Origin: Thermodesulfobacteriota bacterium
GTDB lineage: Bacteria > Desulfobacterota > BSN033 > UBA1163
Assembly (NCBI GenBank): GCA_049513055.1
Contig: JBEKWN010000009.1
Location: forward strand, 3,789 to 67,788
Direction: 5' to 3'
DNA: 64,000 nt
Made by a program: the position numbers and the translations under genes
Shown here: positions 23,293-33,438 of the stretch, one piece after another
How the letters are laid out: each line of letters starts with the position of its first letter
Position numbering within the stretch: position 1 is the stretch's first letter
The notes under the pieces: generated by a model
The model's input: only the letters and a program-made list of their open reading frames with translations
What the model was told of the DNA's origin: nothing
Databases searched by the model: none

Positions 23293-23754
23293 ATGGCCGA
23301 GAAGCTGATTTGTCAGAACAAAAAAGCTTTCCATAATTACTTTATCGAAGAGACGTACCAGACCGGGGTCTCCCTTCTGGGATCAGAGGTTAAGGCATTG
23401 CGGGACGGAAAGGTCAACCTGGGGGATAGCTATGGGGATATCAAAAGAGGTGAGGTTTTTCTCGTCGATGCTCATATCAGTCCTTATCCCCAAGCAAACC
23501 GGTTGAATCACGATCCTTTAAGGACCCGAAAACTCCTCCTTCATAAGAGGGAGATTAAACGGCTAATCGGTAAGGTGGAACAGAGGGGATATACGCTGAT
23601 TCCGCTCAAGCTCTACTTTGTGAACGGTAAGGTGAAGGTAGATCTGGGTCTCGCAAAGGGGAAGAAGCTTTATGATAAACGTGAGACCCTTAAGAAGAAA
23701 ACCATGGAACGCGAGATGGAAAGGGGGCGAAAAGGGTTCGACGGGGATCGTTGA
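23293..23754 (+). CDS. smpB: SsrA-binding protein SmpB
   Basis: [21 protein letters not shown] and LLLHKREI..L are canonical SmpB sequences. Confidence 0.95.
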
Positions 23755-24079
23755 CGTCAGGGCTGCATACCGAGGTCCCATTGGCTCGTAAAACAAATGG
23801 GATTAAACATAATCGCAAACAACTACGATTATGCCCTGGCTGCCTAAACGCAGCTAGGCGTCCTTCCCTGTCCTCTCCTGTAGGGCGGGACAAGGATGTC
23901 AGAAAAACAGGATAGTTCCTCTCTGACGCCTATAAGAGAGGGGCGAAACTTTATAGGATAGCCTTTCAGGAATCCTGCCTGTGGGAGTCCTGAGGGGCGA
24001 ATTTAAAATACAGGCTATGTATGTAGATGTTCTGTCGGAAGGTTTCCGGACGCGGGTTCGATTCCCGCCGCCTCCACCA
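23723..24079 (+). ncRNA. ssrA: tmRNA (SsrA), tag ANNYDYALAA
   Basis: The 5' GGGGGCG pairs with the 3' CGCCTCC-ACCA and includes the G3:U70 alanine identity pair. GGTTCGACGGGG is near the 5' end. The resume codon is GCA at 23815, followed by GCA AAC AAC TAC GAT TAT GCC CTG GCT GCC TAA. The T-arm GGTTCGATTCCCGCC is at the 3' end. Confidence 0.9.
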
Positions 24080-24081
24080 AA
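24057..24081 (+). repeat. attL: 25-bp direct repeat (3' end of ssrA)
   Basis: TTCGATTCCCGCCGCCTCCACCAAA is identical to 33071-33095. Confidence 0.85.
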
Positions 24082-24084
24082 TCT

Positions 24085-24744
24085 TTAGGCAACCTTCCTC
24101 TTTTCTCCTGCCCTCTTCATTCGTGAATAATGAACATAAAAACATCTTGGAGTGTGGTAGAGTTTATTTCTGATCGATGTCGAGGCAAAGAGTTTCCCAC
24201 ATTCTGGGAAAGCACATCTCCTGATACGGGTCCCGGAAAATGCCGTGAGGAGATCTGCCACCTCATTGACGGCGAGGTCATAGTCTGGTTCAGATCCGGA
24301 GATTACCACAACCCTCCCCTTGGGTTTGTAAGAGAAGCCAGTCTCCACAATGAAGTAACCTTCATCAGGAGTCATTATCAAAATTCTGCGAACCGGAGGA
24401 AGATCAACTTCCTCCACTGTCGTTTTAGTAACCGTTTCTTCCATTTTTAGAACCTTCATTATAAAGTCTTTCAGACGCCTCTGGATATTGGGAAGATCAT
24501 CTACAACTTTTGAAAATAGTCTTCCAGTATCAACCTTTCCTGTCTTCTTAATTTTATCGATCATTCCAGCATAGATGTGGGCATATTCAAGGGCGATTGC
24601 CATCTTCTTCTGTATAGGCATTGAGGCCAAGTCGGATTCTACAAAATCGAGAATAAAGTTTAGCCTACCCTGAACGAACTTTTTTCCCTTTATCGTATCT
24701 AAAAGCCTATCGCCTCCTGATTCTCCTCCTGATCTTTTCATCAT
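24085..24744 (-). CDS. hypothetical protein with C-terminal Cys/His zinc-finger-like motif (possible regulator)
   Basis: 219 aa. The C-terminus RRCAFPECGKLF...LYHTPRC...SRMKR resembles CGNR-type zinc fingers. It is transcribed divergently from the element's replication gene. Confidence 0.4.
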   Translation of the reverse strand: MMKRSGGESGGDRLLDTIKGKKFVQGRLNFILDFVESDLASMPIQKKMAIALEYAHIYAGMIDKIKKTGKVDTGRLFSKVVDDLPNIQRRLKDFIMKVLKMEETVTKTTVEEVDLPPVRRILIMTPDEGYFIVETGFSYKPKGRVVVISGSEPDYDLAVNEVADLLTAFSGTRIRRCAFPECGKLFASTSIRNKLYHTPRCFYVHYSRMKRAGEKRKVA

Positions 24745-24924
24745 ATTAAAAGCCTATCACAATGGGGGGCGTTATGCAACGGCAAAAAAATACTTGACTT
24801 CTCAGGTGATATATGTCATATTTAATTAGAAACTGTGTGACGGATGTGAGTTAATGTAATTGTATAACAAAATTCAGAAGTAAATAATTAAAGTTCGTTA
24901 ATCAAATTTAAATCGGAGGATAAA

Positions 24925-27285
24925 ATGACAGTTCACCTTTTCAAAGCCCACCTCGAACACCTCATTAAAAGTTCTGGCCTGACAAAATCGACAATCAAAG
25001 ATGCAGGGCTCTACACCTTGCCCCCTGGAGACATTAGGAAGAAGCTGGGGTTTGATGAAGGAGTAGACTCTGTTCTTGTTTTTCCATATCAGAATTTCAA
25101 GGGGGTCGAACGCTACAAAACATTTCCTCCAATAGACGGTCGTAAATACTTTCAAAAAAAGGGAACACCCAATCATCTCTATACCCTCAAATCTGATATT
25201 CCCTTCTTCTCGGATGTGTCCGTTCCTGCTTGGATCACCGAAGGTGAGAAAAAGAAGCTCAAAGGACAGCAGGAAGGATTATTTACCCTTGGCCTCTCTG
25301 GAATCTGGGGATGGACAAACGGAAAGAAAAAACTATTGAAGGATTTTGATGAGATTGAGTTTAAGGGAAGGGTGGTTAATATCATCCCAGACAACGATTA
25401 CCTCCAGCCTAATAAGTACGGAAAAGGGAAGAATCTGGAACAGGCGGTGGATGAGTTAGCCGCAAGCCTAACAAAGTTAGGGGCGGAGGTGTTCATTGTT
25501 AAATTGCCACCCGGACCAGAGAAGGGTTTGGATGATTTTCTATGCGTCTACACCATTAAAGAACTCTATGCACTTCCAAAAGAAAAGTTTGAGGGAAAGG
25601 CGGAAAAAAAGAAGAAGAAGTTTTCCCAGGCCGAAATTATTATTTCAGAGGTTTCAAAGAACGAAGAGATTAAACTCTTCCATAACGAGGATCAGGAACC
25701 ATTCGTATTCTTAGATCGGGAGGCAGTATCCCTCCGTTCAAGAAAAATGAGGCAGTATCTTTCTTTGATTTATTACTCCAGCACAGGAAAGGGGTTGAGT
25801 TCCGATTCCCTTAATCAAGCGTTGAATATTTTAGAAGCGGTAAGCATTTTCAAGTCACCAATGTATCCTTTGTTAAACCGGGTGGCTCGTGTTGGAGATG
25901 TGTTTTATTACGATTTGTGTGTAAATGGAAAGGCTGTTCGCATAGCACCTTCGGGATGGGAGGTCATTGACTCACCCATTCTTTTTAGACGATATTCCCA
26001 CCAAACACCACAGTTGATTCCATGTCATGGTGGTGATCCCTGGCAGATATTTAAGTATCTGAATGTCACGGAAGAGTATCGACTGCTAATTCTCATCGTT
26101 GTCATTTCTTATTTCATTCCAGAAATCCCTCATCCCGTGCTCCATCCACATGGAGCCCAAGGTTCAGCCAAAACTACAGCGTGTAAAGTTATCAAGAGGA
26201 TCGTGGACCCATCTCTGGTGGAAGTCTTTGGTGCTCCAAAGGATTATTTCCAGGTAGTCCAGAACCTCACACACCATTACCTATCTATTTTCGATAACGT
26301 TACAGACTTGAAGGATTGGATCTCCGACCTGATTTCCCTGGCCGTGTCCGGAGGCGGATTTTCCAAGCGACAACTCTTCACGGATGACGATGATGTGATC
26401 TATCGGATTCAAAGATGTGTTGGACTAAACGGAATCAACCTGCTTGTGTCGAAGCCAGACCTGATGGATCGAACCGTCCTGTTTCCTTTGCACAGAATAG
26501 AACCTTCCCGGAGGAAAGAAGAGGGAGACCTCTGGAGTAAGTTTGAGGCTGACAGGCCATCCATCCTGGGGGGAATCTTCGATGTACTCTCGAGGGCGAT
26601 GGAGATCCATCCGAATATCACCTTATCATCTCTTCATCGAATGGCCGACTTCGATCGATGGGGGTTTGCGATTGGTGAAGCACTTGGAAGAGGACTTGGA
26701 GAAGAATTTCTAAAAGCATATCAGAAGAACGTCGAACGCCAAAATGAAGAAGTTATCCAAGGAAACACGCTGGCACAGGCTCTTCTCCGGCTGATGACTG
26801 ATTATCCGATGGAGGAGTGGGAGGGAACCGTTGGTGACCTCTTTAAGGTGCTGACAGAGATCAGCCCACCCGTCAAGGATGACGATACCTTTCCGAAGGT
26901 GCAGCGGACCCTGAAGAAGCACATAGAGAGGATCACACCGACGTTGCTTGATCATGGATTGAAGTTTACCTTCCATCCGAAAAAGACAAGGGAAGGATAT
27001 AAAATAACCATCCATAGAGATGGGAAATTTGGTTCATTTGATTCACAGAGAGTCTCACCACCAGATAACCACACGGAATCAGACGAGAATTCGTGTGAAC
27101 CAAACGGTGAACCAAGTGTGAACCAAAACGAGAATCAGGAATTTGGTTCACCGCTTAGTTCACCATCTAACATATCGGAATCATTGAGGTGTGAACCAAA
27201 TGAACCAAGTGAACCAAAATTCCATCCTTCACGGGGTGATGTTGTTAAAAATGACTCAGAAATCGAATTCCCTACAGGAGAATGA
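24925..27285 (+). CDS. primase-helicase-type replication protein (N-terminal Toprim/DUF3854-like, central P-loop NTPase)
   Basis: Toprim Glu (AWITEGEKK) and DxD (IIPDND). Walker A-like HGAQGSAKTT and Walker B-like LSIFDNV. 786 aa. Confidence 0.65.
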   Translation: MTVHLFKAHLEHLIKSSGLTKSTIKDAGLYTLPPGDIRKKLGFDEGVDSVLVFPYQNFKGVERYKTFPPIDGRKYFQKKGTPNHLYTLKSDIPFFSDVSVPAWITEGEKKKLKGQQEGLFTLGLSGIWGWTNGKKKLLKDFDEIEFKGRVVNIIPDNDYLQPNKYGKGKNLEQAVDELAASLTKLGAEVFIVKLPPGPEKGLDDFLCVYTIKELYALPKEKFEGKAEKKKKKFSQAEIIISEVSKNEEIKLFHNEDQEPFVFLDREAVSLRSRKMRQYLSLIYYSSTGKGLSSDSLNQALNILEAVSIFKSPMYPLLNRVARVGDVFYYDLCVNGKAVRIAPSGWEVIDSPILFRRYSHQTPQLIPCHGGDPWQIFKYLNVTEEYRLLILIVVISYFIPEIPHPVLHPHGAQGSAKTTACKVIKRIVDPSLVEVFGAPKDYFQVVQNLTHHYLSIFDNVTDLKDWISDLISLAVSGGGFSKRQLFTDDDDVIYRIQRCVGLNGINLLVSKPDLMDRTVLFPLHRIEPSRRKEEGDLWSKFEADRPSILGGIFDVLSRAMEIHPNITLSSLHRMADFDRWGFAIGEALGRGLGEEFLKAYQKNVERQNEEVIQGNTLAQALLRLMTDYPMEEWEGTVGDLFKVLTEISPPVKDDDTFPKVQRTLKKHIERITPTLLDHGLKFTFHPKKTREGYKITIHRDGKFGSFDSQRVSPPDNHTESDENSCEPNGEPSVNQNENQEFGSPLSSPSNISESLRCEPNEPSEPKFHPSRGDVVKNDSEIEFPTGE

Positions 27286-27731
27286 AAATGATAGTTCAAG
27301 CGATTGTAGATTTCGAGTTGGAGGCTATCGATGGTCGCCTGTTCCAATATAAGACAGGACAGAAGATTATATTCAAGGATCATGTGGCACAAAGGTTAAT
27401 CTCTCAAGGCAAGGTTGTGCTCTTCCAGGCTCCTCCCGAACCTTCCATAAACGAATTCATGGATTTGTGGCAGGCAATCTTCAAGGCATTGGGAAAAGGT
27501 GCACTCTCGCTAAAGAAATTTGATGGACCCGTCCAGATCCAGGTGGGTTCACTCTCTACATCGATTTGGTATGAGTATATACCGTCATTGGCAAATGTCT
27601 TCTTTACGCCCAAGGAGATCATGGAATTGCTCTCCAAATATTTCTTGATGAGGAAAAATGAATTTGCTGAACACTTCAGGGCGGCCTGTTTGGTGAAAGG
27701 GATATTCGAGGGAAGCGAATTATTGAAATGA
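27282..27731 (+). CDS. hypothetical protein (149 aa)
   Basis: ORF whose start overlaps the upstream stop. No motif recognised. Confidence 0.45.
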   Translation: MKMIVQAIVDFELEAIDGRLFQYKTGQKIIFKDHVAQRLISQGKVVLFQAPPEPSINEFMDLWQAIFKALGKGALSLKKFDGPVQIQVGSLSTSIWYEYIPSLANVFFTPKEIMELLSKYFLMRKNEFAEHFRAACLVKGIFEGSELLK

Positions 27732-27747
27732 AAGAAACTCAAACATT

Positions 27748-27990
27748 ATGGAGGTGATTAAAATGGCTGAAAGGTTCGAAGGGAAGGTCAAATTCTTTTC
27801 TTCCCAAGGGAGGTATGGCTTCATAATCGGTCCGAATCAAATTGAATATTATTTCCGAGAATCCGACTGTCAGAGAACCGTGACTAATTTGAAGGATGGG
27901 GAGCCAGTATCGTTTGTTCTGGTCAATGGGTTGAAAGGGCCTCGTGCCGTGGCCATTAGGAAAACATCTGATGTGGAGGAGAGTAAATGA
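27748..27990 (+). CDS. cold-shock domain (CspA-family) protein
   Basis: GKVKFFSSQGRYGFI carries RNP1-like motifs, followed by FRESD. 80 aa, with OB-fold length and pattern. Confidence 0.75.
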   Translation: MEVIKMAERFEGKVKFFSSQGRYGFIIGPNQIEYYFRESDCQRTVTNLKDGEPVSFVLVNGLKGPRAVAIRKTSDVEESK

Positions 27991-28148
27991 GACCACCTAA
28001 GAGACGCATCAGTCAAAACCGATATTGTTCTTATTGTCACTCCTGGGTAACCAAGAAAGTATGGATGAAGACAGATGGCAAATGTCCAACGTGTCGGGGA
28101 CCTTTAACGGATCCCTACCAGCCTTATGAGGTGGTCCGTGGAAGTTAA
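27987..28148 (+). CDS. 53-aa zinc-ribbon micro-protein (not in ORF track)
   Basis: The ATG overlaps the csp stop (ATGA). The product is MRPPKRRISQNRYCSYCHSW...DGKCPTCRGPL, with CxxC...CxxC. The reading frame was translated by hand. Confidence 0.35.
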   Translation: MRPPKRRISQNRYCSYCHSWVTKKVWMKTDGKCPTCRGPLTDPYQPYEVVRGS

Positions 28149-28326
28149 GGTTTTTGGAGATTTCGAGAAGGCGTTAAGAATCTTTAAAATGAAGGTTACG
28201 AAAGATGGAATACTGGGACAGGTCAAACGAAGACATGATGGATTCGATTCATCCAGTGTTAAAAGAAGAAACAAACACCATAAACATCTCCTCCGATTGA
28301 AGAAAATGGAAAGGAAGATGAGATGA
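28126..28326 (+). CDS. ribosomal protein S21-like protein (element-encoded paralog)
   Basis: VEVKVFGDFEKALRIFKMKVTKDGILGQVKRRHDGFDSSSVKRRNKHHK aligns with the host RpsU sequence [48 protein letters not shown]. The start may be the GTG at 28138. Confidence 0.7.
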   Translation: MRWSVEVKVFGDFEKALRIFKMKVTKDGILGQVKRRHDGFDSSSVKRRNKHHKHLLRLKKMERKMR

Positions 28327-28628
28327 TTACTAAAAAACTTAAAAGAGAATTTTACGATAAGTTCGTAAGGGATAAGGACTCGAAGCGATTCTATGACTCG
28401 GCAAGATGGAAGAAGGCGAAGCGAATGAAGTTGAACCGCAACCCACTCTGTGAACTCTGTGAGCAAGAAGGAGTGACCCGTCCCGCTGATCTCGTTCACC
28501 ACCTTTTACCAGTTGATAAGAATAGTGATAGGAATCTTGACTTGATGTACTTGGTTAGCCTATGTCACGAACACCACAATAGAGTAGAGACGGAGCGTGA
28601 GAAGGATGAGACGGCGAGAGGTAATTGA
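28323..28628 (+). CDS. HNH endonuclease (phage-type)
   Basis: CELCEQEG...DLVHH...LVSLCHEHHNRVE. The ATG overlaps the S21-like stop (ATGA). Confidence 0.8.
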   Translation: MITKKLKREFYDKFVRDKDSKRFYDSARWKKAKRMKLNRNPLCELCEQEGVTRPADLVHHLLPVDKNSDRNLDLMYLVSLCHEHHNRVETEREKDETARGN

Positions 28629-28715
28629 TGGGAGGGGGTACAGGGGGGACCCAGATCGCTATTGACCCTTCCGGCCTCTACCCCACGCTGAGAAACGGAT
28701 TTTTGTGGACAAGAT

Positions 28716-30665
28716 ATGAAGAAATCGAAAAAAAATAAGCCAGGACCACACAGGATTGAAGGTCCGATGAGGAAACTTCTTGGCATGAAGGAACGAGGTT
28801 CTTCCAAGAAGATTGAGAATCCTCCGCATAGACTATCATTTCCTGCCAAATCCAAGAAGATGTCGAATGGGGAATATCAGTTTAATAAGTTTAACCACTT
28901 CTGTGAATCCTATCTGAAACACGTCTCGGGCGAGTTTGCGGGCTTACCATTTATCCTTGAACCGTGGCAGAAGAAGATTGCCAAGGTGATTTTCTCGACA
29001 TTGAAGAAAGACGGATCGAGACAATACCGCAAACTGCTAATCCATGTAGGCAGGCGAAACGGAAAGTCGACATTTGCAGCAGCCTTCATCCTTTTTTGGC
29101 TATGTGAAGAATCCTTTTCTGATCCAGCTGCTGAAATCTATGGAGCATCAGGAGATGAGAAACAGGCTGCTTTAATCTTCCGTATCTGTCAACTGATGAT
29201 CCGTCAGTCCGAAGAACTCTCACAACTGCTTGAGGTCAAACCATTTTATCATAGGATTGCGAACCCTTTAACCATGGGTGTTTATGAAGTCCTTTCATCC
29301 AAAGTCCCGACAAAGCCAGGTAGAAATTCATCCCTCGTCATCATCGACGAAACGTGGGCTCTACCTTCTGGTGAACTCTACACCCTCTTGGAGACCTCGA
29401 TGGGCAGCAGGAAGCAGCCCTTAATGATCAGCCTAAGTTCTGCAGGGGAGTCAACCGGATCCTTCTATTATGAATTGTATGACTATTCGAAACGGGTTGA
29501 AGCGAATCCCAAAATGGATCCTGCTTTCTATCCGGTCATTTTCGAAGTTGAAGCAGACAAAGATCCCTTTGATGAGCGATTTTGGAAGCAGGCTAATCCG
29601 GGACTTGGAAAATATCGCTCTCTTGAGGAGATGAGGGAACTCGCTTCCAGAGCAAAACATGCTCCTGCTCAGGAAGGTGTTTTTAGAAGGCATTATTTGA
29701 ATCAGTGGGTATCCCTGGGCATCGAATCATGGCTTCCTTCACTCGTGTGGGATGGGTGCGGTGATCCGATCGATTATCCATCTCTTCCTCAAAGAAGATG
29801 CTTCATGGGAATTGATCTTTCCTCTTCAATCGATCTTGCAGCTGTTGTTCTATTATTTGAACCTCTTGAACCGGGTGGGAGATGGGACACCTTTCCTTTC
29901 ATTTGGGTGCCGGGAACAGAATTGACAGCTAAATCAAGAGAGGATCATCTGGCCTATGATGCGTGGTATGCACAGGGACTCATTTTTTGGGAAGGGAAGC
30001 CAGCTATTGATTTTGGATCCATCGCTGAGAAAATTCTGGAGTTGAATAAAGAATTTAATTTGGTTGGCGTTGGCTTTGATCCATGGCGCGCGAAGGATTT
30101 GATCGACTTCCTGAGACAGCAAGAAGGCTTCGAAGAAAAGCTGGTCCCGATCCCGCAACAATTCTCTTTCATGTCCGATGCCACAATGGAGATCCAGAGA
30201 AAAGTCCATAATCGTGAGCTTCGTCATGGAGGACACCCCGTACTTCGTGCCATGTCTGAAAATGTGAAGCTGGTTACCGATACGAAAGGGAATAGAATGA
30301 TCGATAAGAAGAAATCAAGGACCAGGATTGACGGCATAAGCGGGCTGTGTATTGCACAATCCTGTGCCACAAAATTCAAGAGTGTGAGTCAAGGTAGTGT
30401 TTATGATCACCGGGGCATCCTAACCCTCGATCTCCGGCCGACCGGACACTTAACCTCTGAAGACTGGAATGGATTAGGCATCCCCCCAATCCGATATGTT
30501 GAGGATGAACCCACCGAACCCCATGGAGATCACCCTTATTGCATCCGATGTATCAAACAAGAATCTGGAAGAAAGGTTTTTCTCATAAAGAAGAACGAGG
30601 ACCTTTGGGATTGTCCTGTGTGTGGTCTGCATCACACCCGGGATGATCTGAAAATTAACCCCTAA
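28716..30665 (+). CDS. phage terminase large subunit (Terminase_1/COG4626-like) with C-terminal zinc-ribbon extension
   Basis: Walker A-like GRRNGKST and Walker B VIIDETW. An RNase-H-fold nuclease half is present (MGIDLSSSIDLAA, VGFDPWRA, IDGISG). The C-terminus has CIRC...CPVC. Confidence 0.8.
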   Translation: MKKSKKNKPGPHRIEGPMRKLLGMKERGSSKKIENPPHRLSFPAKSKKMSNGEYQFNKFNHFCESYLKHVSGEFAGLPFILEPWQKKIAKVIFSTLKKDGSRQYRKLLIHVGRRNGKSTFAAAFILFWLCEESFSDPAAEIYGASGDEKQAALIFRICQLMIRQSEELSQLLEVKPFYHRIANPLTMGVYEVLSSKVPTKPGRNSSLVIIDETWALPSGELYTLLETSMGSRKQPLMISLSSAGESTGSFYYELYDYSKRVEANPKMDPAFYPVIFEVEADKDPFDERFWKQANPGLGKYRSLEEMRELASRAKHAPAQEGVFRRHYLNQWVSLGIESWLPSLVWDGCGDPIDYPSLPQRRCFMGIDLSSSIDLAAVVLLFEPLEPGGRWDTFPFIWVPGTELTAKSREDHLAYDAWYAQGLIFWEGKPAIDFGSIAEKILELNKEFNLVGVGFDPWRAKDLIDFLRQQEGFEEKLVPIPQQFSFMSDATMEIQRKVHNRELRHGGHPVLRAMSENVKLVTDTKGNRMIDKKKSRTRIDGISGLCIAQSCATKFKSVSQGSVYDHRGILTLDLRPTGHLTSEDWNGLGIPPIRYVEDEPTEPHGDHPYCIRCIKQESGRKVFLIKKNEDLWDCPVCGLHHTRDDLKINP

Positions 30666-30686
30666 CCCAAAAAGGAGGTAAATGAC

Positions 30687-31451
30687 ATGAAATTTTTAGC
30701 TGGAGAGAAGGAATCCGAAAAACTTTTTAAAAAACTTCAAGAAATTATGGCGGAGGAGGTGGTGATTAAGGAAGAACAAAAAAAGTTGGAACCCAGCATG
30801 AGAAGAACTTTTCAAAGATTTGTCTTGGCCAACGCCTGCCTAAATAGCAGCGAAGCGAGCGAAGCCAGATTTGCGGGAGAGGCGCTTCGGGCAAAAAAGG
30901 TTAATCTCTGGGATGCCTGGTATCGGAGGTTGACAAAAATTCAGATTGACCTTCAAAAAATAACTGCTCCGGCGATTGTCGATTTTTGTGAGGTCTTACT
31001 GAAGGAATTGAAAAATTTAAATAAGGGGAAAGTCTTCCGGATTATCACTGATAAAGAAAATTTACATGCGGAGCGCGGAGGAAGGATTTTTGAAGCTCAA
31101 CATAATTTTTTCAGCATCCACGAAGCTCAACAAAAACTTTTGAGCGCGGTTGAGGCACTCAGGGGAATGGACCTACAACCCATTTCTTCGATCAAAAAGG
31201 TTTTCGAGGAGGCGATTCAAAAGATTCCTTCTGAATTTGAGGTGGCGACAACCCTGGGAAACAGCGAATTTCGCTCGTGGATTCTTGATAATCAGCCACG
31301 AGACCTCAACCCTGACGAGAGCCAAGGTATCTGGCTGCAAACTGCCCAATATTTATCTGATCTTGAAAAAAAGGTTTTGGACTTTAAAAAAGTTAAAGAC
31401 GAGGAATTCGTTGGAGGTTTGGTTTCGAAGCATCGGGATCCGATAATTTGA
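30687..31451 (+). CDS. hypothetical protein (254 aa)
   Basis: ORF with an AGGAGG RBS. Helical composition and no recognised motif. Confidence 0.5.
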   Translation: MKFLAGEKESEKLFKKLQEIMAEEVVIKEEQKKLEPSMRRTFQRFVLANACLNSSEASEARFAGEALRAKKVNLWDAWYRRLTKIQIDLQKITAPAIVDFCEVLLKELKNLNKGKVFRIITDKENLHAERGGRIFEAQHNFFSIHEAQQKLLSAVEALRGMDLQPISSIKKVFEEAIQKIPSEFEVATTLGNSEFRSWILDNQPRDLNPDESQGIWLQTAQYLSDLEKKVLDFKKVKDEEFVGGLVSKHRDPII

Positions 31452-31468
31452 TATGACCGGGAAATAGA

Positions 31469-31578
31469 GTGATGGTCCCCCCGGCGAGCATGGGCCGGCT
31501 CCGCCCTCCTCTTTTTGCCTTCGGGGAGGTGGGGACCATCACCTTCGCCCTCTCTCCCCGAGGGAGAGCACTTTTATT
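31469..31578 (+). other. GC-rich structured element plus intrinsic terminator
   Basis: A 12-bp perfect closing helix GTGATGGTCCCC (31469-31480) / GGGGACCATCAC (31531-31542) encloses CCGGC..GCCGG and CCTCC..GGAGG helices. It is followed by CTCTCCC-CGA-GGGAGAG and then a T-run. Confidence 0.35.
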
Positions 31579-31703
31579 GGTGAGGGGATGTGACAAAATT
31601 ACCACAGGGGGATTTTAGGTGCATGGTTAGATATGGACCGATGTAAAAAGTCTCGTTTTAGGTCATTTAGAGCCCATAAAAATAGGAGGGAGGAGGTGAT
31701 CTC

Positions 31704-31808
31704 ATGAATTACCAAACGGCCATTTTATTATTTATTTTCACCATGGTTGTTTTAGGTTTGGGCATTGTAGTTATCGATTTTATAAAAGGGAGAGTAAGAA
31801 AGAATTGA
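31704..31808 (+). CDS. 34-aa hydrophobic micro-protein (not in ORF track)
   Basis: A strong RBS (GGAGGGAGGAGG) lies 6 nt upstream of the ATG. The product is MNYQTAILLFIFTMVVLGLGIVVIDFIKGRVRKN, one TM helix plus a basic tail. Its stop overlaps the first possible start of int. Confidence 0.3.
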   Translation: MNYQTAILLFIFTMVVLGLGIVVIDFIKGRVRKN

Positions 31809-31840
31809 CTGAAAGTTTTCCTTCGACTATTATAATCTGC

Positions 31841-32986
31841 ATGAAGGGTGGTATCTATTCTAAAGAGAGATGCCCGGTCTGTAACCGGAACTTTCAGCAC
31901 ATTGGGAATGACCTTATCTGCCCTGATCACCAAACAAGACCCAGAAGATACTACATTGCAATGTATAGCAGGGAGCTTGGCAGGAACCTTGTCGTGTGTT
32001 CTGATCCATCAAGGAGACTTCCATTCTCTTCTTATGAGATGGCCTACCGGATATTGGAGAAGATCAGGTCAGAGATTGATGCACACACTTTTGATCTGTC
32101 CAGATACGTGCAGGCGAAGTTGAGGCCATTACAATTCAATGTATGGGCTGATGAATGGCTATCTAAGAAAGAGATCCTTGTGGAAAAGAAGGTCAGGACC
32201 CCATCATATTTGAAGGAGTTGAGGAGGTTCGTCAGGATCTACAAGGGATTTTTTGGAGAGATGGACATCAGAGACATCGGAAATAAAGCCGTTGATAACT
32301 TCTTTTTAAGTATCCGTGGTAAGCCAAAGTATCAGGCCAATATTATGAACGGCCTTCATAAGATGTTAGCGGATGCCTTGGATTGGAAGGATATAGGGAT
32401 GATGCCAACATTTCCAAAGATAGAAGTGCCGGAGCAAGAGGTGAAAGTTATTACTTTGGAAGATCAGGACCGGATCATCAATTTGATTGAAGACAAAATG
32501 GATCGGGCGTATATCTTATTTACAGCAAGAGAGATGGTGAGGCCGTCCGAAACGAGGGCGTTGTGCTGGGATGCTATTGATCTCCTGCATAACAAGGTGA
32601 CTATCAAGAGGCACTTCTCATTGAATGAATTGTGGACTGCTACCAAGAGTAGGGCAATCAAGGTGCTGCCTCTGGACCCGGATGTGAAGGAACTGCTGGA
32701 GGGGCTACAGAGGCATATCAAGAGTCCCTTCGTGTTCCATAAAGAGGACGGGAGGCCGTACAGCGAATCCTATACACGCAAGCTGTGGAATAAGATCAGC
32801 GGAGGGATGGGTATCAGGATATCTCTCTACCAAGGAACAAGGCACAGCAGTGCCACAGAAGCAGCCACACGGGTGTCTATGGACGTGATATCGGAGTTCC
32901 TGGGGCATACATCACAGAGGATGAGTAAGAGGTACGTTAAGCAAAACCCTGATCGATTAAAGGGTGCATTGAGAGTTGCGAAGTAA
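31841..32986 (+). CDS. int: tyrosine-type site-specific integrase with N-terminal Zn-finger
   Basis: N-terminal CPVC...CPDH. The catalytic domain has ETRALCW (Arg), GTRHSSAT (HxxR) and GHTSQRMSKRY (His...Tyr). The track ORF begins at 31805 (TTG) and the ATG at 31841 is preferred. Confidence 0.85.
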   Translation: MKGGIYSKERCPVCNRNFQHIGNDLICPDHQTRPRRYYIAMYSRELGRNLVVCSDPSRRLPFSSYEMAYRILEKIRSEIDAHTFDLSRYVQAKLRPLQFNVWADEWLSKKEILVEKKVRTPSYLKELRRFVRIYKGFFGEMDIRDIGNKAVDNFFLSIRGKPKYQANIMNGLHKMLADALDWKDIGMMPTFPKIEVPEQEVKVITLEDQDRIINLIEDKMDRAYILFTAREMVRPSETRALCWDAIDLLHNKVTIKRHFSLNELWTATKSRAIKVLPLDPDVKELLEGLQRHIKSPFVFHKEDGRPYSESYTRKLWNKISGGMGIRISLYQGTRHSSATEAATRVSMDVISEFLGHTSQRMSKRYVKQNPDRLKGALRVAK

Positions 32987-33070
32987 CCTGACATTATCCA
33001 ATCTTTAACCGGATAAGAAATGGCTGAATTAAACAGAATTATTTTAATGAGTTGCAACACGGGCGACTTA

Positions 33071-33095
33071 TTCGATTCCCGCCGCCTCCACCAAA
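33071..33095 (+). repeat. attR: 25-bp direct repeat (displaced ssrA 3' end)
   Basis: TTCGATTCCCGCCGCCTCCACCAAA is identical to 24057-24081. Confidence 0.85.
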
Positions 33096-33137: not shown

Positions 33138-33166
33138 TAAAGCTCCGATTATTTCGGAGCTTTTTA
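33138..33166 (+). terminator. intrinsic terminator (probably the original ssrA terminator)
   Basis: AAAGCTCCGA-TTATT-TCGGAGCTTT followed by TTT, about 45 nt after attR. Confidence 0.6.
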
Positions 33167-33438
33167 ATTTTACCAGGAGCATTCTAAATTAATACCTCAG
33201 GTCCTTCAAGAACCGTTGGAACTCATGGGACTCAGCCACGATTTCAACCAATCGAAGTGGGATGAAACCCACCTTGCCATTATGCAAAGATTTGAGGAGT
33301 GACTGAAAACATGTATTTTGAAAAGAGTTTACTAAATTAGAGTAGAAGGGTCAATGTGAACTTTGAGAAAGAGCGGAAGTCAATAGGGGATGCCAATCTA
33401 TGCTAAAATATGTTATAAAAATTATCATTAGGAGATGA

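Follow-up and report, generated by a model that had tools for sequence, protein, structure and literature searches.

A compact integrative element of about 9 kb lies in the transfer-messenger RNA (tmRNA) gene, ssrA, of a Syntrophales-type bacterium (Thermodesulfobacteriota), within the 64,000-nt stretch of contig JBEKWN010000009.1 that was analyzed here and that we call the window. From its gene content we infer that it is a phage satellite, and probably an intact member of a family of satellites that integrate at tRNA or tmRNA genes and bring their own packaging motor, i.e., a large terminase (TerL) and its HNH endonuclease partner, but no capsid. A recurring family of this kind is apparently undescribed. 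The evidence that bears on it directly is the site-specific integration, an architecture and size that recur at different integration sites, a TerL that is intact and under selection, the lack of virion genes and extensions of TerL that are specific to its clade, together with an intact integrase and a cluster of iterons inside an intact replicase gene.

The target of integration is a complete ssrA on the forward strand (23723-24079; found with ARAGORN, and with Rfam RF00023 at 239 bits), which encodes the tag peptide ANNYDYALAA and whose 3' end is restored by the copy that the element carries at attL. As the first-pass annotation of this DNA had reported, exact 25-bp direct repeats of the ssrA 3' end bracket the element: TTCGATTCCCGCCGCCTCCACCAAA, the last 23 bases of ssrA plus two more, is found at 24057-24081 (attL, the T-arm/acceptor 3' end of ssrA) and again at 33071-33095 (attR, the displaced native 3' end), a spacing of 9,014 bp. 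No other exact pair of 25 nt occurs in the 20 largest repeat families that were listed for the region 22-35 kb, and by our own arithmetic the chance expectation for an exact pair of 25-mers in 13 kb is approximately 1e-7. The terminator that the same annotation had placed outside attR, as expected if attR is the displaced end of the native gene, is also there: a hairpin with a 10-bp stem (33139-33163) and a subsequent T run form the native ssrA terminator (33139-33173, forward strand) immediately outside attR, and in related Syntrophales genomes a hairpin terminator lies directly 3' of ssrA. Because the terminator is outside attR and relatives show the same order of ssrA and hairpin, we identify the right repeat as the native ssrA 3' end, for which the element has brought in the left repeat as a replacement. 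The predicted attP junction of the element is GGGCGACTTA-TTCGATTCCCGCCGCCTCCACCAA-TTACCAAAGC, and the predicted attB junction of the empty ssrA site is GGACGCGGG-TTCGATTCCCGCCGCCTCCACCAA-AATTTCGTAAT.

Two independent metagenome assemblies carry the element in its integrated form. They match the window with 100% identity, L008 over 9.1 kb and L009 over 7.5 kb, except that both have 68 bp more immediately after the CCA of the tmRNA (L008 128-195; window 24080/24081). The extra sequence includes a terminator hairpin for the rebuilt ssrA, AAAGCCCCAgtagttTTGGGGCTTT, and has been cleanly deleted in the window copy. The true repeat between element and chromosome is 24 bp, as in the undeleted copy L008, and the 25th base is a by-product of the deletion. 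We also note that the window ssrA, terminator-less after the deletion, reads directly into the antisense strand of a 219-aa gene that ends 4 bp past attL.

The packaging genes are a 101-aa HNH endonuclease of the phage-packaging type (28323-28628, forward strand; phrog_144, 7e-21) and, after it, a 649-aa TerL (28716-30665, forward strand; phrog_9, 6e-125) with both Pfam TerL domains, TerL_ATPase and TerL_nuclease. TerL consists of an HK97-type ATPase and nuclease core (residues ~62-563), preceded by a basic N-terminal extension (1-~62) and followed by a C-terminal Zn-ribbon tail (~570-649). Residues 62-563 align with the crystallised HK97 TerL (6Z6D) at E = 8e-59, and the essential residues of the HK97 enzyme have been identified by Fung et al. 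(PMC9410871). Mapped by motif letters in the 6Z6D alignment, HK97 residues R56, K57 and K60 of Walker A correspond to R113, R114 and K117 of the window TerL, D153 and E154 of Walker B to D211 and E212, the nuclease aspartates D302, D388 and D471 to D367, D455 and D539, and the nuclease lysine K463 to K531. In an alignment of the clade TerLs with one phage TerL, most of the catalytic positions are invariant and the rest nearly so.

The closest TerL in a different element, L046 at tRNA-Arg(CCG), is 90% identical in protein and 83% in DNA. Over 565 aligned codons this pair gives dS 0.87, dN 0.077 and dN/dS 0.089 (0.23 for the N-terminal extension alone), and the low ratio means that TerL is under strong purifying selection inside capsid-less elements. 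The DNA similarity (window 28686-30415, L046 6251-7985) begins 30 bp before the TerL start codon and stops at the end of the TerL core, while the other genes of the two elements are only 25-43% identical in protein. This pattern suggests a recent swap of the TerL gene between otherwise distant elements at ssrA and tRNA-Arg(CCG).

Both extensions are features of the clade. All its TerLs have a basic N-terminal stretch of approximately 65 aa, situated before the point at which HK97 and other phage TerLs start, with the consensus …KKxGRPRxxG…R.L.G.R..G..K…P.RL.FP.K…M.EGEY..FKF (GRPR-type in most members, GPHR in the window). The C-terminal CxxC…CxxCG tail is common to all of them as well: it is fused to TerL in the window, L046, L045, P0122 and P0123, and is a separate ORF in the other branch. 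L045 keeps both extensions despite a TerL core that is only 34% identical. Among viral contigs, the best 80 relatives of the window TerL in IMG/VR are at most 36% identical, and for most of them the alignment does not start before residue 44-74; in roughly a dozen others it starts further upstream, at residues 5-40, and these may include N-termini with the extension. None of the 80 is followed by a homologue of the protein that comes after TerL in the element. The next TerLs outside the clade, P0136 and P0140 (36-37% identity), belong to complete HK97-like head modules with HNH, Terminase_4 TerS (the small terminase), TerL, portal, protease, capsid, connectors and tail.

The exact window TerL occurs on four metagenome contigs, and among 5.8 billion proteins only 14 clusters have at least 40% identity to it. 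Samples that contain the element are JGI 3300038417 and SRR7027865, the habitats being peat, sediment or digester. We retrieved the context of each TerL-clade member on a long enough contig, plus two elements found through the protein after TerL, which gave a family sample of eight metagenome elements: the window element, L046, L045, L010, L011, L013, L130 and L131. A search for the same element elsewhere, as proposed with the first-pass annotation, has thereby turned up identical metagenome copies as well as seven relatives, all with a TerL of the same clade (34-90% identical to that of the window). The plan is the same in 8/8: a tyrosine integrase, a single large replication protein, up to three small genes, HNH directly upstream of TerL, TerL itself, a Zn-ribbon tail that either has its own ORF of 77-90 aa or is part of TerL, and an ORF of 210-270 aa; a divergent regulator or small helix-turn-helix (HTH) proteins are usual. 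No match to a portal, protease, capsid, connector or TerS was found in any of the eight. Besides the window element in ssrA (repeat of 25 bp, 9,014 bp), they are L013 at tRNA-Leu(CAG) (58 bp, 9,188 bp), L046 at tRNA-Arg(CCG) (48 bp, 9,572 bp), L045, L011 and L010 at tRNA-Arg(CCT) (25 bp, 9,647 bp; 45 bp, 9,940 bp; 49 bp, 10,078 bp), L131 at tRNA-Arg(CCG) (41 bp, 10,179 bp), and L130 at a tRNA-like 3' end that is truncated where the contig stops (18 bp, 10,261 bp). Their replicases are of DUF3854, Prim-Pol, AEP-TOTE, DUF3987, DUF3631-like and PriCT_1+AAA_25 types, and their integrases are only 22-28% identical, where similarity is detectable at all. The backbone is exchangeable, and the HNH-TerL-tail-ORF module and the total size are kept. 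Decay of prophages would not be expected to produce this, because random deletion would not yield a kept module and a kept size together with a variable backbone. The size range of 9.0-10.3 kb suggests a capacity constraint, and one can speculate that it comes from a small capsid or, by analogy with cos-type SaPIs, from several copies per 40-kb head.

All ORFs of the element were searched against Pfam, PHROGs and NCBIfam at E<=0.01. The gene content listed in the first-pass annotation is borne out by these searches and by the ORF list, and so is its statement that virion genes are missing: no ORF matched a capsid, portal, protease, tail, lysis or TerS family. The protein encoded directly after TerL, p254 (254 aa; 30687-31451, forward strand), is a putative TerL partner predicted to consist of a long helical hairpin (2-113) and a small alpha/beta domain. 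Its family is very small: of 1.84 billion cluster representatives 22 belong to it, with lengths of 176-279 aa in all cases but one. The sequence gave nothing significant in Pfam, PHROGs, NCBIfam, PADLOC or a profile search of the PDB, and tblastn against GenBank phages and PLSDB plasmids returned no matches. The AlphaFold (AF2) model is confident (pLDDT 86.9), and Foldseek comparison of it with the PDB and BFVD found nothing at E <= 1e-3, the top matches being generic coiled coils. By profile and fold, p254 is thus neither a portal nor a capsid protein, nor a TerS that can be recognised. The profile built from its family matches only the ORF directly after TerL in L046, L045, L013 and L011, and matches nothing in the phage loci or TerL-less islands examined. 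The slot after TerL is kept in all elements, its protein in 5/8.

What could a terminase do in such an element? HK97-type terminases act only on portal-bearing procapsids, and in HK97 the HNH protein stimulates cos cleavage (PMC9410871). Because TerL is kept functional in an element that has no portal or capsid genes, it most plausibly works on the procapsids of another phage. Since the element has its own TerL and HNH but no TerS, recognition of its DNA must lie outside TerS; candidates are the basic N-terminal extension of TerL, p254, and a pair of small proteins described below (a cold-shock-domain protein, CSD, and p149), none of them supported by homology. In the mechanism that we propose, where not only induction and packaging but also the helper phage, the cos site and what p254, the bS21 homologue (also described below) and the CSD protein do are deduced, the element would sit repressed in ssrA until induction of, or infection by, a helper, presumed to be an HK97-like siphovirus. 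It would then excise by means of its own integrase, replicate from the iterons and express its late operon. Its own HNH-TerL pair would cut the element concatemers at an element-specific site, and TerL would dock on helper procapsids and pump in element DNA, with portal, capsid and tail supplied by the helper and the function of TerS possibly passed to the TerL N-terminal extension, p254, or both. The most specific version, in which the family takes only the empty procapsid and the tail from its helper, in which TerL has gained a DNA-recognition part of its own (the basic N-terminal extension) and the Zn-ribbon tail and, with HNH and p254, recognises, cuts and translocates satellite DNA without TerS, and in which its own bS21 may re-programme translation, we put forward tentatively and with less than even confidence.

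Several observations weigh against the satellite reading. The identical metagenome contigs show the integrated form only, with no sign of excision, a circular form or encapsidation. No helper prophage lies within the window, where the flanks are housekeeping genes, and the TerL of the element would have to fit a foreign portal. No cos site was identified in the element. A conserved non-coding block was considered as a cos candidate and rejected, as the relatives resemble the element in DNA only within the TerL gene. Neither p254 nor the N-terminal extension of TerL resembles a TerS of the P27 type, taken from the nearest phages (hhalign probability below 1%). A p254 homologue is detectable in only 5/8 elements: in L130 and L131 the slot after TerL is filled by another protein, common to both (70% identical), and in L010 by a third. 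Finally, p254 was not found in GenBank phages, and no member of the family was found among IMG/VR viral contigs, either by p254 patterns or by the window TerL. A scan of IMG/VR with a TerL profile likewise gave only phage-type TerLs of at most 36% identity. Absence from collections oriented toward viral particles could mean that the elements are missed by virus predictors, that they are rare, or that they are not packaged. The p254 patterns also found nothing in the GTDB representative genomes, among which the source genome is not included.

How well do other explanations account for the same data? The first-pass annotation had left the choice between a heavily deleted prophage and a compact satellite with its own HNH and TerL. 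A plain remnant of an HK97-like prophage, with its virion genes deleted and the survivors decaying, could explain why TerL and HNH are of HK97-like phage type, why their order resembles the left end of HK97-like phages, and why there is a 68-bp deletion beside attL in the window copy. We nevertheless find it very improbable. Eight independent elements share the same compact content and narrow size at different sites, with direct repeats at both ends. Their TerLs have extensions of their own that are absent from phages, and the window TerL keeps all catalytic residues at a low dN/dS. The ORFs are tightly packed and overlapping, with no frameshifted fragments of structural genes among them, and by profile or fold the orphan ORFs are not structural proteins. 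The prophage half of the original choice therefore falls, on the 8/8 recurrence, the dN/dS and the intact residues, and gene content favours the satellite half. The annotation had also named two findings that would speak against it. Profile and fold searches of the orphan ORFs revealed no degraded structural genes, and the active sites of int and terL are not mutated but essentially intact. The opposite extreme, a miniature virus that is complete but has capsid and portal proteins diverged beyond recognition (for example p254, p149 or the small ORFs), gains something from the several ORFs without detectable homologues, but it is the hardest of all to believe: the confident p254 model has no HK97-fold, portal or jelly-roll match, and only about 1.6 kb of coding sequence is unassigned, far too little for portal, capsid and tail.

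The strongest of the alternatives, though in our view still unlikely, is an integrative, self-replicating island of the tycheposon or mobilisable type, in which HNH, TerL and p254 are cargo directed mainly against phages, for example by cutting or mis-packaging HK97-like phage DNA or blocking the portal, and only secondarily, if at all, serve the spread of the element. Known satellites often interfere with helper packaging (PMC11417361, PMC5052747), the family was not found in viral contigs, and homologues of the replicase and the regulator occur in islands of the same build with defence-related cargo. Specifically, the three closest replicase homologues with readable context lie in small islands bounded by a tyrosine or serine integrase and containing HTH regulators, the closest of them also with a regulator of the 219-aa type, and where the TerL module would be, these islands hold restriction-modification, Abi or protease cargo. 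The TerL-less islands (L001 6617-13200; L004/L005 6490-19000; L006 6388-21600) are found beside tRNA genes or with serine recombinases, and their cargo includes type I or type III-like restriction-modification systems, Abi, RhuM and a trypsin-like protease. However, PADLOC defence models match the element only through the generic CSD and HNH families. A narrow size range with differing gene sets fits a packaging-size constraint, whereas the TerL-less relatives carry at least 10 kb of variable cargo. An intact translocating ATPase plus nuclease also exceeds what interference needs, and interference and self-packaging can in any case coexist. Alternatively, TerL and HNH might resolve the element's own concatemers to unit length, with transfer by vesicles, transformation or some other carrier and no capsid at all. 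The lack of an identified TerS, portal or cos site and the absence from viral collections would agree with this, and carriage in vesicles has been proposed for tycheposons (bioRxiv 10.1101/2020.12.28.424599). We consider it improbable, because the whole translocase core, including Walker A and B, is kept under strong purifying selection and a pure resolvase would not need it. To our knowledge, moreover, no terminase works without a portal-bearing capsid.

The satellite that we favour shares parts of its design with several known systems. Phage-inducible chromosomal islands of the capsid-forming kind (cfPICIs; Alqurainy et al. 2023) are likewise small integrative satellites with an integrase, a regulator, a primase-replicase and their own HNH and HK97-like TerL; relative to PICIs they have terL and head-tail adaptor and connector genes, beyond capsid-related components (SatelliteFinder, PMC10085698). 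Unlike the present elements, cfPICIs encode capsid, protease, head-tail adaptor, connector and TerS and take only tails from the helper; TerL and HNH are the part of this set that occurs here, none of the rest is found in the eight elements, and the TerL of the element has the extra N- and C-terminal extensions. Classical PICIs, including SaPIs, are similar in size (median PICI 9.5 kb), in the order integrase-regulator-primase/replicase with an adjacent origin-packaging module, and in their dependence on helper virion proteins, which for the element is deduced from its genes. The element, too, is a compact island of integrase, regulator (so named by position and conserved homologues) and primase-replicase that lacks structural genes, and cos-type SaPIs such as SaPIbov5 also rely on HNH and TerL chemistry (PMC5052747). 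PICIs, however, use a TerS of their own or a copy of the cos site to redirect the helper TerL, and usually lack a TerL gene, whereas the element has TerL and HNH, and neither TerS nor Cpm/Ccm-like capsid-morphogenesis genes were detected in it (Pfam, PHROGs).

Tycheposons (Hackl et al.; bioRxiv 10.1101/2020.12.28.424599) and VEIMEs/PICMIs (PMC9618062) are tyrosine-recombinase elements at tRNA or tmRNA genes, and the element, a site-specific recombinase element with a replication module at a tmRNA 3' end, corresponds to this description. They also have a modular shared backbone with either cargo or a packaging gene, the same split that we see here between TerL elements and TerL-less islands. 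Compared by description, PICI-like tycheposons and VEIMEs differ in having terS, a major capsid protein (MCP) or HNH, not TerL, and in having marine plankton hosts as opposed to anaerobic Syntrophales. With HK97-like cos phages (HK97 gp1/gp2/gp74; PMC9410871) the element shares the TerL core fold, the catalytic residues and an HNH partner, which in HK97 stimulates cos cleavage. These phages, unlike the element, have TerS, portal, protease, capsid and tail genes beside TerL, and TerLs that lack the basic N-terminal extension and the Zn-ribbon tail; in place of their TerS-TerL-portal-protease-MCP module only TerL and HNH are present here. P4-like satellites are also integrative elements of about 10 kb with a primase-helicase that binds iterons, but P4 uses the helper terminase, and no PDB structure matched the p254 model at E<=1e-3. 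The P4 families Sid, Psu, Delta, Epsilon and Alpha gave no match in Pfam or PHROGs, and the replicase is of the DUF3854 type. The Sid protein of P4, 244 aa and mostly helical, loosely recalls p254. PLEs are characterised by a large serine recombinase, RepA_N and ICP1-specific genes, as against a tyrosine integrase and DUF3854 in the element, whose host is not Vibrio.

In general, P4-like elements, PLEs, PICMIs/VEIMEs, PICI-like tycheposons and classical PICIs are described with TerS, capsid-remodelling, MCP or HNH genes and not with TerL, and the remark in the first-pass annotation that this is not the usual PICI or P4 layout agrees with what we find, i.e., an own TerL and HNH and no recognisable TerS. 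Full-text searches of an incomplete literature library found no bacterial satellite that has TerL and HNH and lacks capsid genes. The most similar concept comes from archaea, where spindle viruses have plasmid-like satellites with just a helper-type ATPase and/or MCP. The element is therefore filed as a variant of the satellite kind outside every named family, set apart from these partly by descriptions. Among the IMG/VR contigs, L123 (IMGVR_UViG_2508501123_000001, 12,269 bp) has HNH-TerL followed by ORFs of 420, 176 and 408 aa, which from their sizes only, with no confirmation from a family scan, could be portal, protease and capsid as in cfPICI- or phiRv1-like elements.

Known satellites hijack packaging in three ways: they supply TerS, copy the cos site or build their own capsid. 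If the satellite reading is true, supplying the motor enzyme without the capsid would be a fourth strategy, and it would show that selection can adapt a TerL to a foreign portal. Site-specific packaging that is possibly independent of TerS, an open question in the study of terminases, would gain a natural example. The finding would also extend satellites to the uncultured anaerobic Syntrophales and Thermodesulfobacteriota, in which phage parasitism is almost unstudied. A TerL with the N-terminal extension, an adjoining HNH and no portal within 10 kb provides a signature by which the family can be searched for.

Only one gene of the element, beside attL, is on the minus strand, and the others form one tightly packed plus-strand series with several stop/start overlaps. 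The minus-strand gene (24085-24744) encodes a 219-aa protein that is, from its position only, a candidate master regulator; it has no family match in Pfam, PHROGs, NCBIfam or PADLOC. L013 (30-32% identity), L046 (25%) and the TerL-less island L001 (25%) have homologues in the corresponding position, and these share its Cys/His motif, which is located at the C-terminus and in the window protein reads CxxxCGKLF..S..K.Y....C...H.SR..R. In the 180-bp divergent intergenic region (24745-24924) there is a promoter-like site, TTGACT-17-CATATT with TG (24794-24822, forward strand), identified by consensus scan only.

The replication gene (24925-27285, forward strand) encodes a 786-aa protein with an N-terminal DUF3854 (Toprim-like) domain (Pfam PF12965, 5e-14) and a helicase-like part with a P-loop (GAQGSAKT). 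It has 369 homologues, the best of them 70% identical, and is 27% identical to a protein of Microbacterium phage Zeta1847 for which the annotation gives primase or helicase. An iteron cluster (27029-27217) lies within the 3' end of the gene and has copies of GTGAACCAA in both orientations, ten of them within 190 bp, of which six are exact and four have a single mismatch, as compared with one other exact copy in the whole 64-kb window. From this arrangement we read the cluster as a candidate replication origin. The C-terminal tail of the replication protein is of low complexity (CEPNGEPSVNQNENQ…CEPNEPSEPK…), as if the DNA iterons dictated the protein sequence.

Four small genes separate the replicase from HNH, and gene calls for ORFs of this size are uncertain. 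The start of p149 (149 aa; 27282-27731, forward strand) overlaps the replicase stop. Its AF2 model is unusable (pLDDT 57.6), and its sole homologue among the 5.8 billion proteins, P0189 (65% identity), is a 231-aa protein in which the p149-like part is fused to a CSD domain. The next gene encodes an 80-aa CSD protein (27748-27990, forward strand; Pfam CSD, 9e-9), predicted to bind nucleic acid by its OB-fold and also present in the relative L046. Because the two are fused as one protein in the sole p149 homologue (a Rosetta-stone link), p149 and the CSD protein probably act together on nucleic acid. A 53-aa ORF with a CxxC...CxxC pattern (27987-28148, forward strand), a candidate Zn ribbon for which a homologue was not found, is a putative gene, called on L008 but not on L009. 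It is followed by a 66-aa homologue of ribosomal protein bS21 (28126-28326, forward strand), with 31.8 bits in Pfam (cut-off 27) and 31.7 bits for TIGR00030 (cut-off 28.95). A bS21-like gene just upstream of HNH-TerL is present in 4/8 elements (two above the Pfam cut-off and two weak), those of the relatives being at L010 9285-9527, L045 3316-3519 and L131 4034-4342. In phages, bS21 genes are tied to late-stage replication (PMC9723584), and by analogy the homologue in the element may bias translation.

At the right end, approximately 350 bp of hairpin-rich non-coding DNA separate p254 from a 34-aa ORF and the integrase. It contains a long GC-rich imperfect inverted repeat, GATGGTCCCC…GGGGACCATC (31469-31542, forward strand; fold z-score only -2.0), and a terminator-like hairpin found by terminator scan (31550-31568, forward strand). 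Together these hairpins (31469-31568) probably mark the end of the operon, and judged from its sequence the stretch is one candidate location for a packaging site; the inverted repeat is not conserved in relatives at the DNA level. The 34-aa ORF, MNYQTAILLFIFTMVVLGLGIVVIDFIKGRVRKN (31704-31808, forward strand), is strongly hydrophobic with a single membrane pass, has a strong GGAGG ribosome-binding site and is among the genes called on L008; possible roles are those of a small membrane toxin, a peptide for exclusion or one that resembles a holin. The tyrosine integrase (31841-32986, forward strand; Pfam Phage_integrase 4e-13, phrog_1 7e-33) has 381 aa from the ATG at 31841, which is its more likely start, as called on an identical metagenome contig. 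When it is aligned to XerA (4A8E), the catalytic R and K, the second R, the second H and the Tyr nucleophile are all conserved, and only the first His of the HxxR box is replaced, a position that is variable among tyrosine recombinases. The integrases of the window (31841-31960; CxxC...CPDH) and L046 (272-1369, minus strand) both have a zinc-ribbon-like N-terminal CxxC…C/H motif before the SAM-like and catalytic domains.

The chromosomal flanks comprise MutS2, DnaG, RpoD, tRNA-Met, an NtrY-like kinase and SmpB upstream, and a DUF255 thioredoxin-like protein, CbiM, an ABC transporter ATPase and Dus downstream; the upstream 739-aa ORF was considered as RNase R and rejected, since it is the NtrY-like histidine kinase. 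The G+C content of the element (~0.42-0.45) does not set it apart from its surroundings (0.40-0.48). The tmRNA tag peptide is present in 29 GTDB species representatives, nearly all of them annotated as Syntrophales, Syntrophaceae, 'delta proteobacterium' or Thermodesulfobacteriota metagenome-assembled genomes (MAGs). Several of these genomes are 84-92% identical in DNA to the window over most of the 1.7 kb upstream of ssrA (the kinase end and smpB), and their ssrA is 88-94% identical to that of the window. The element was not found in the related genomes that we compared, where ssrA stands directly before its terminator, and no related genome with a terminator-ended ssrA has the downstream flank of the window adjoining it. 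Because several related genomes hold other insertions or a leftover second att copy at ssrA, the gene appears to be an insertion hotspot in this Syntrophales/Thermodesulfobacteriota clade.

Three further arrangements were seen at these integration sites. Beside the L011/L012 element, a second 48-bp direct repeat (L012 3899 and 6832), which is the other half of tRNA-Arg(CCT), brackets about 3 kb with toxin-antitoxin genes of BrnT/BrnA-like and MqsA-like types, which appear to form another small island in tandem with the first. The related MAGs L025, L035, L028 and L029 have unrelated AT-rich DNA after ssrA in place of the usual terminator. In L039 (reverse strand 1050-1833), a second near-exact copy of the ssrA 3' end lies 761 bp downstream of the gene.

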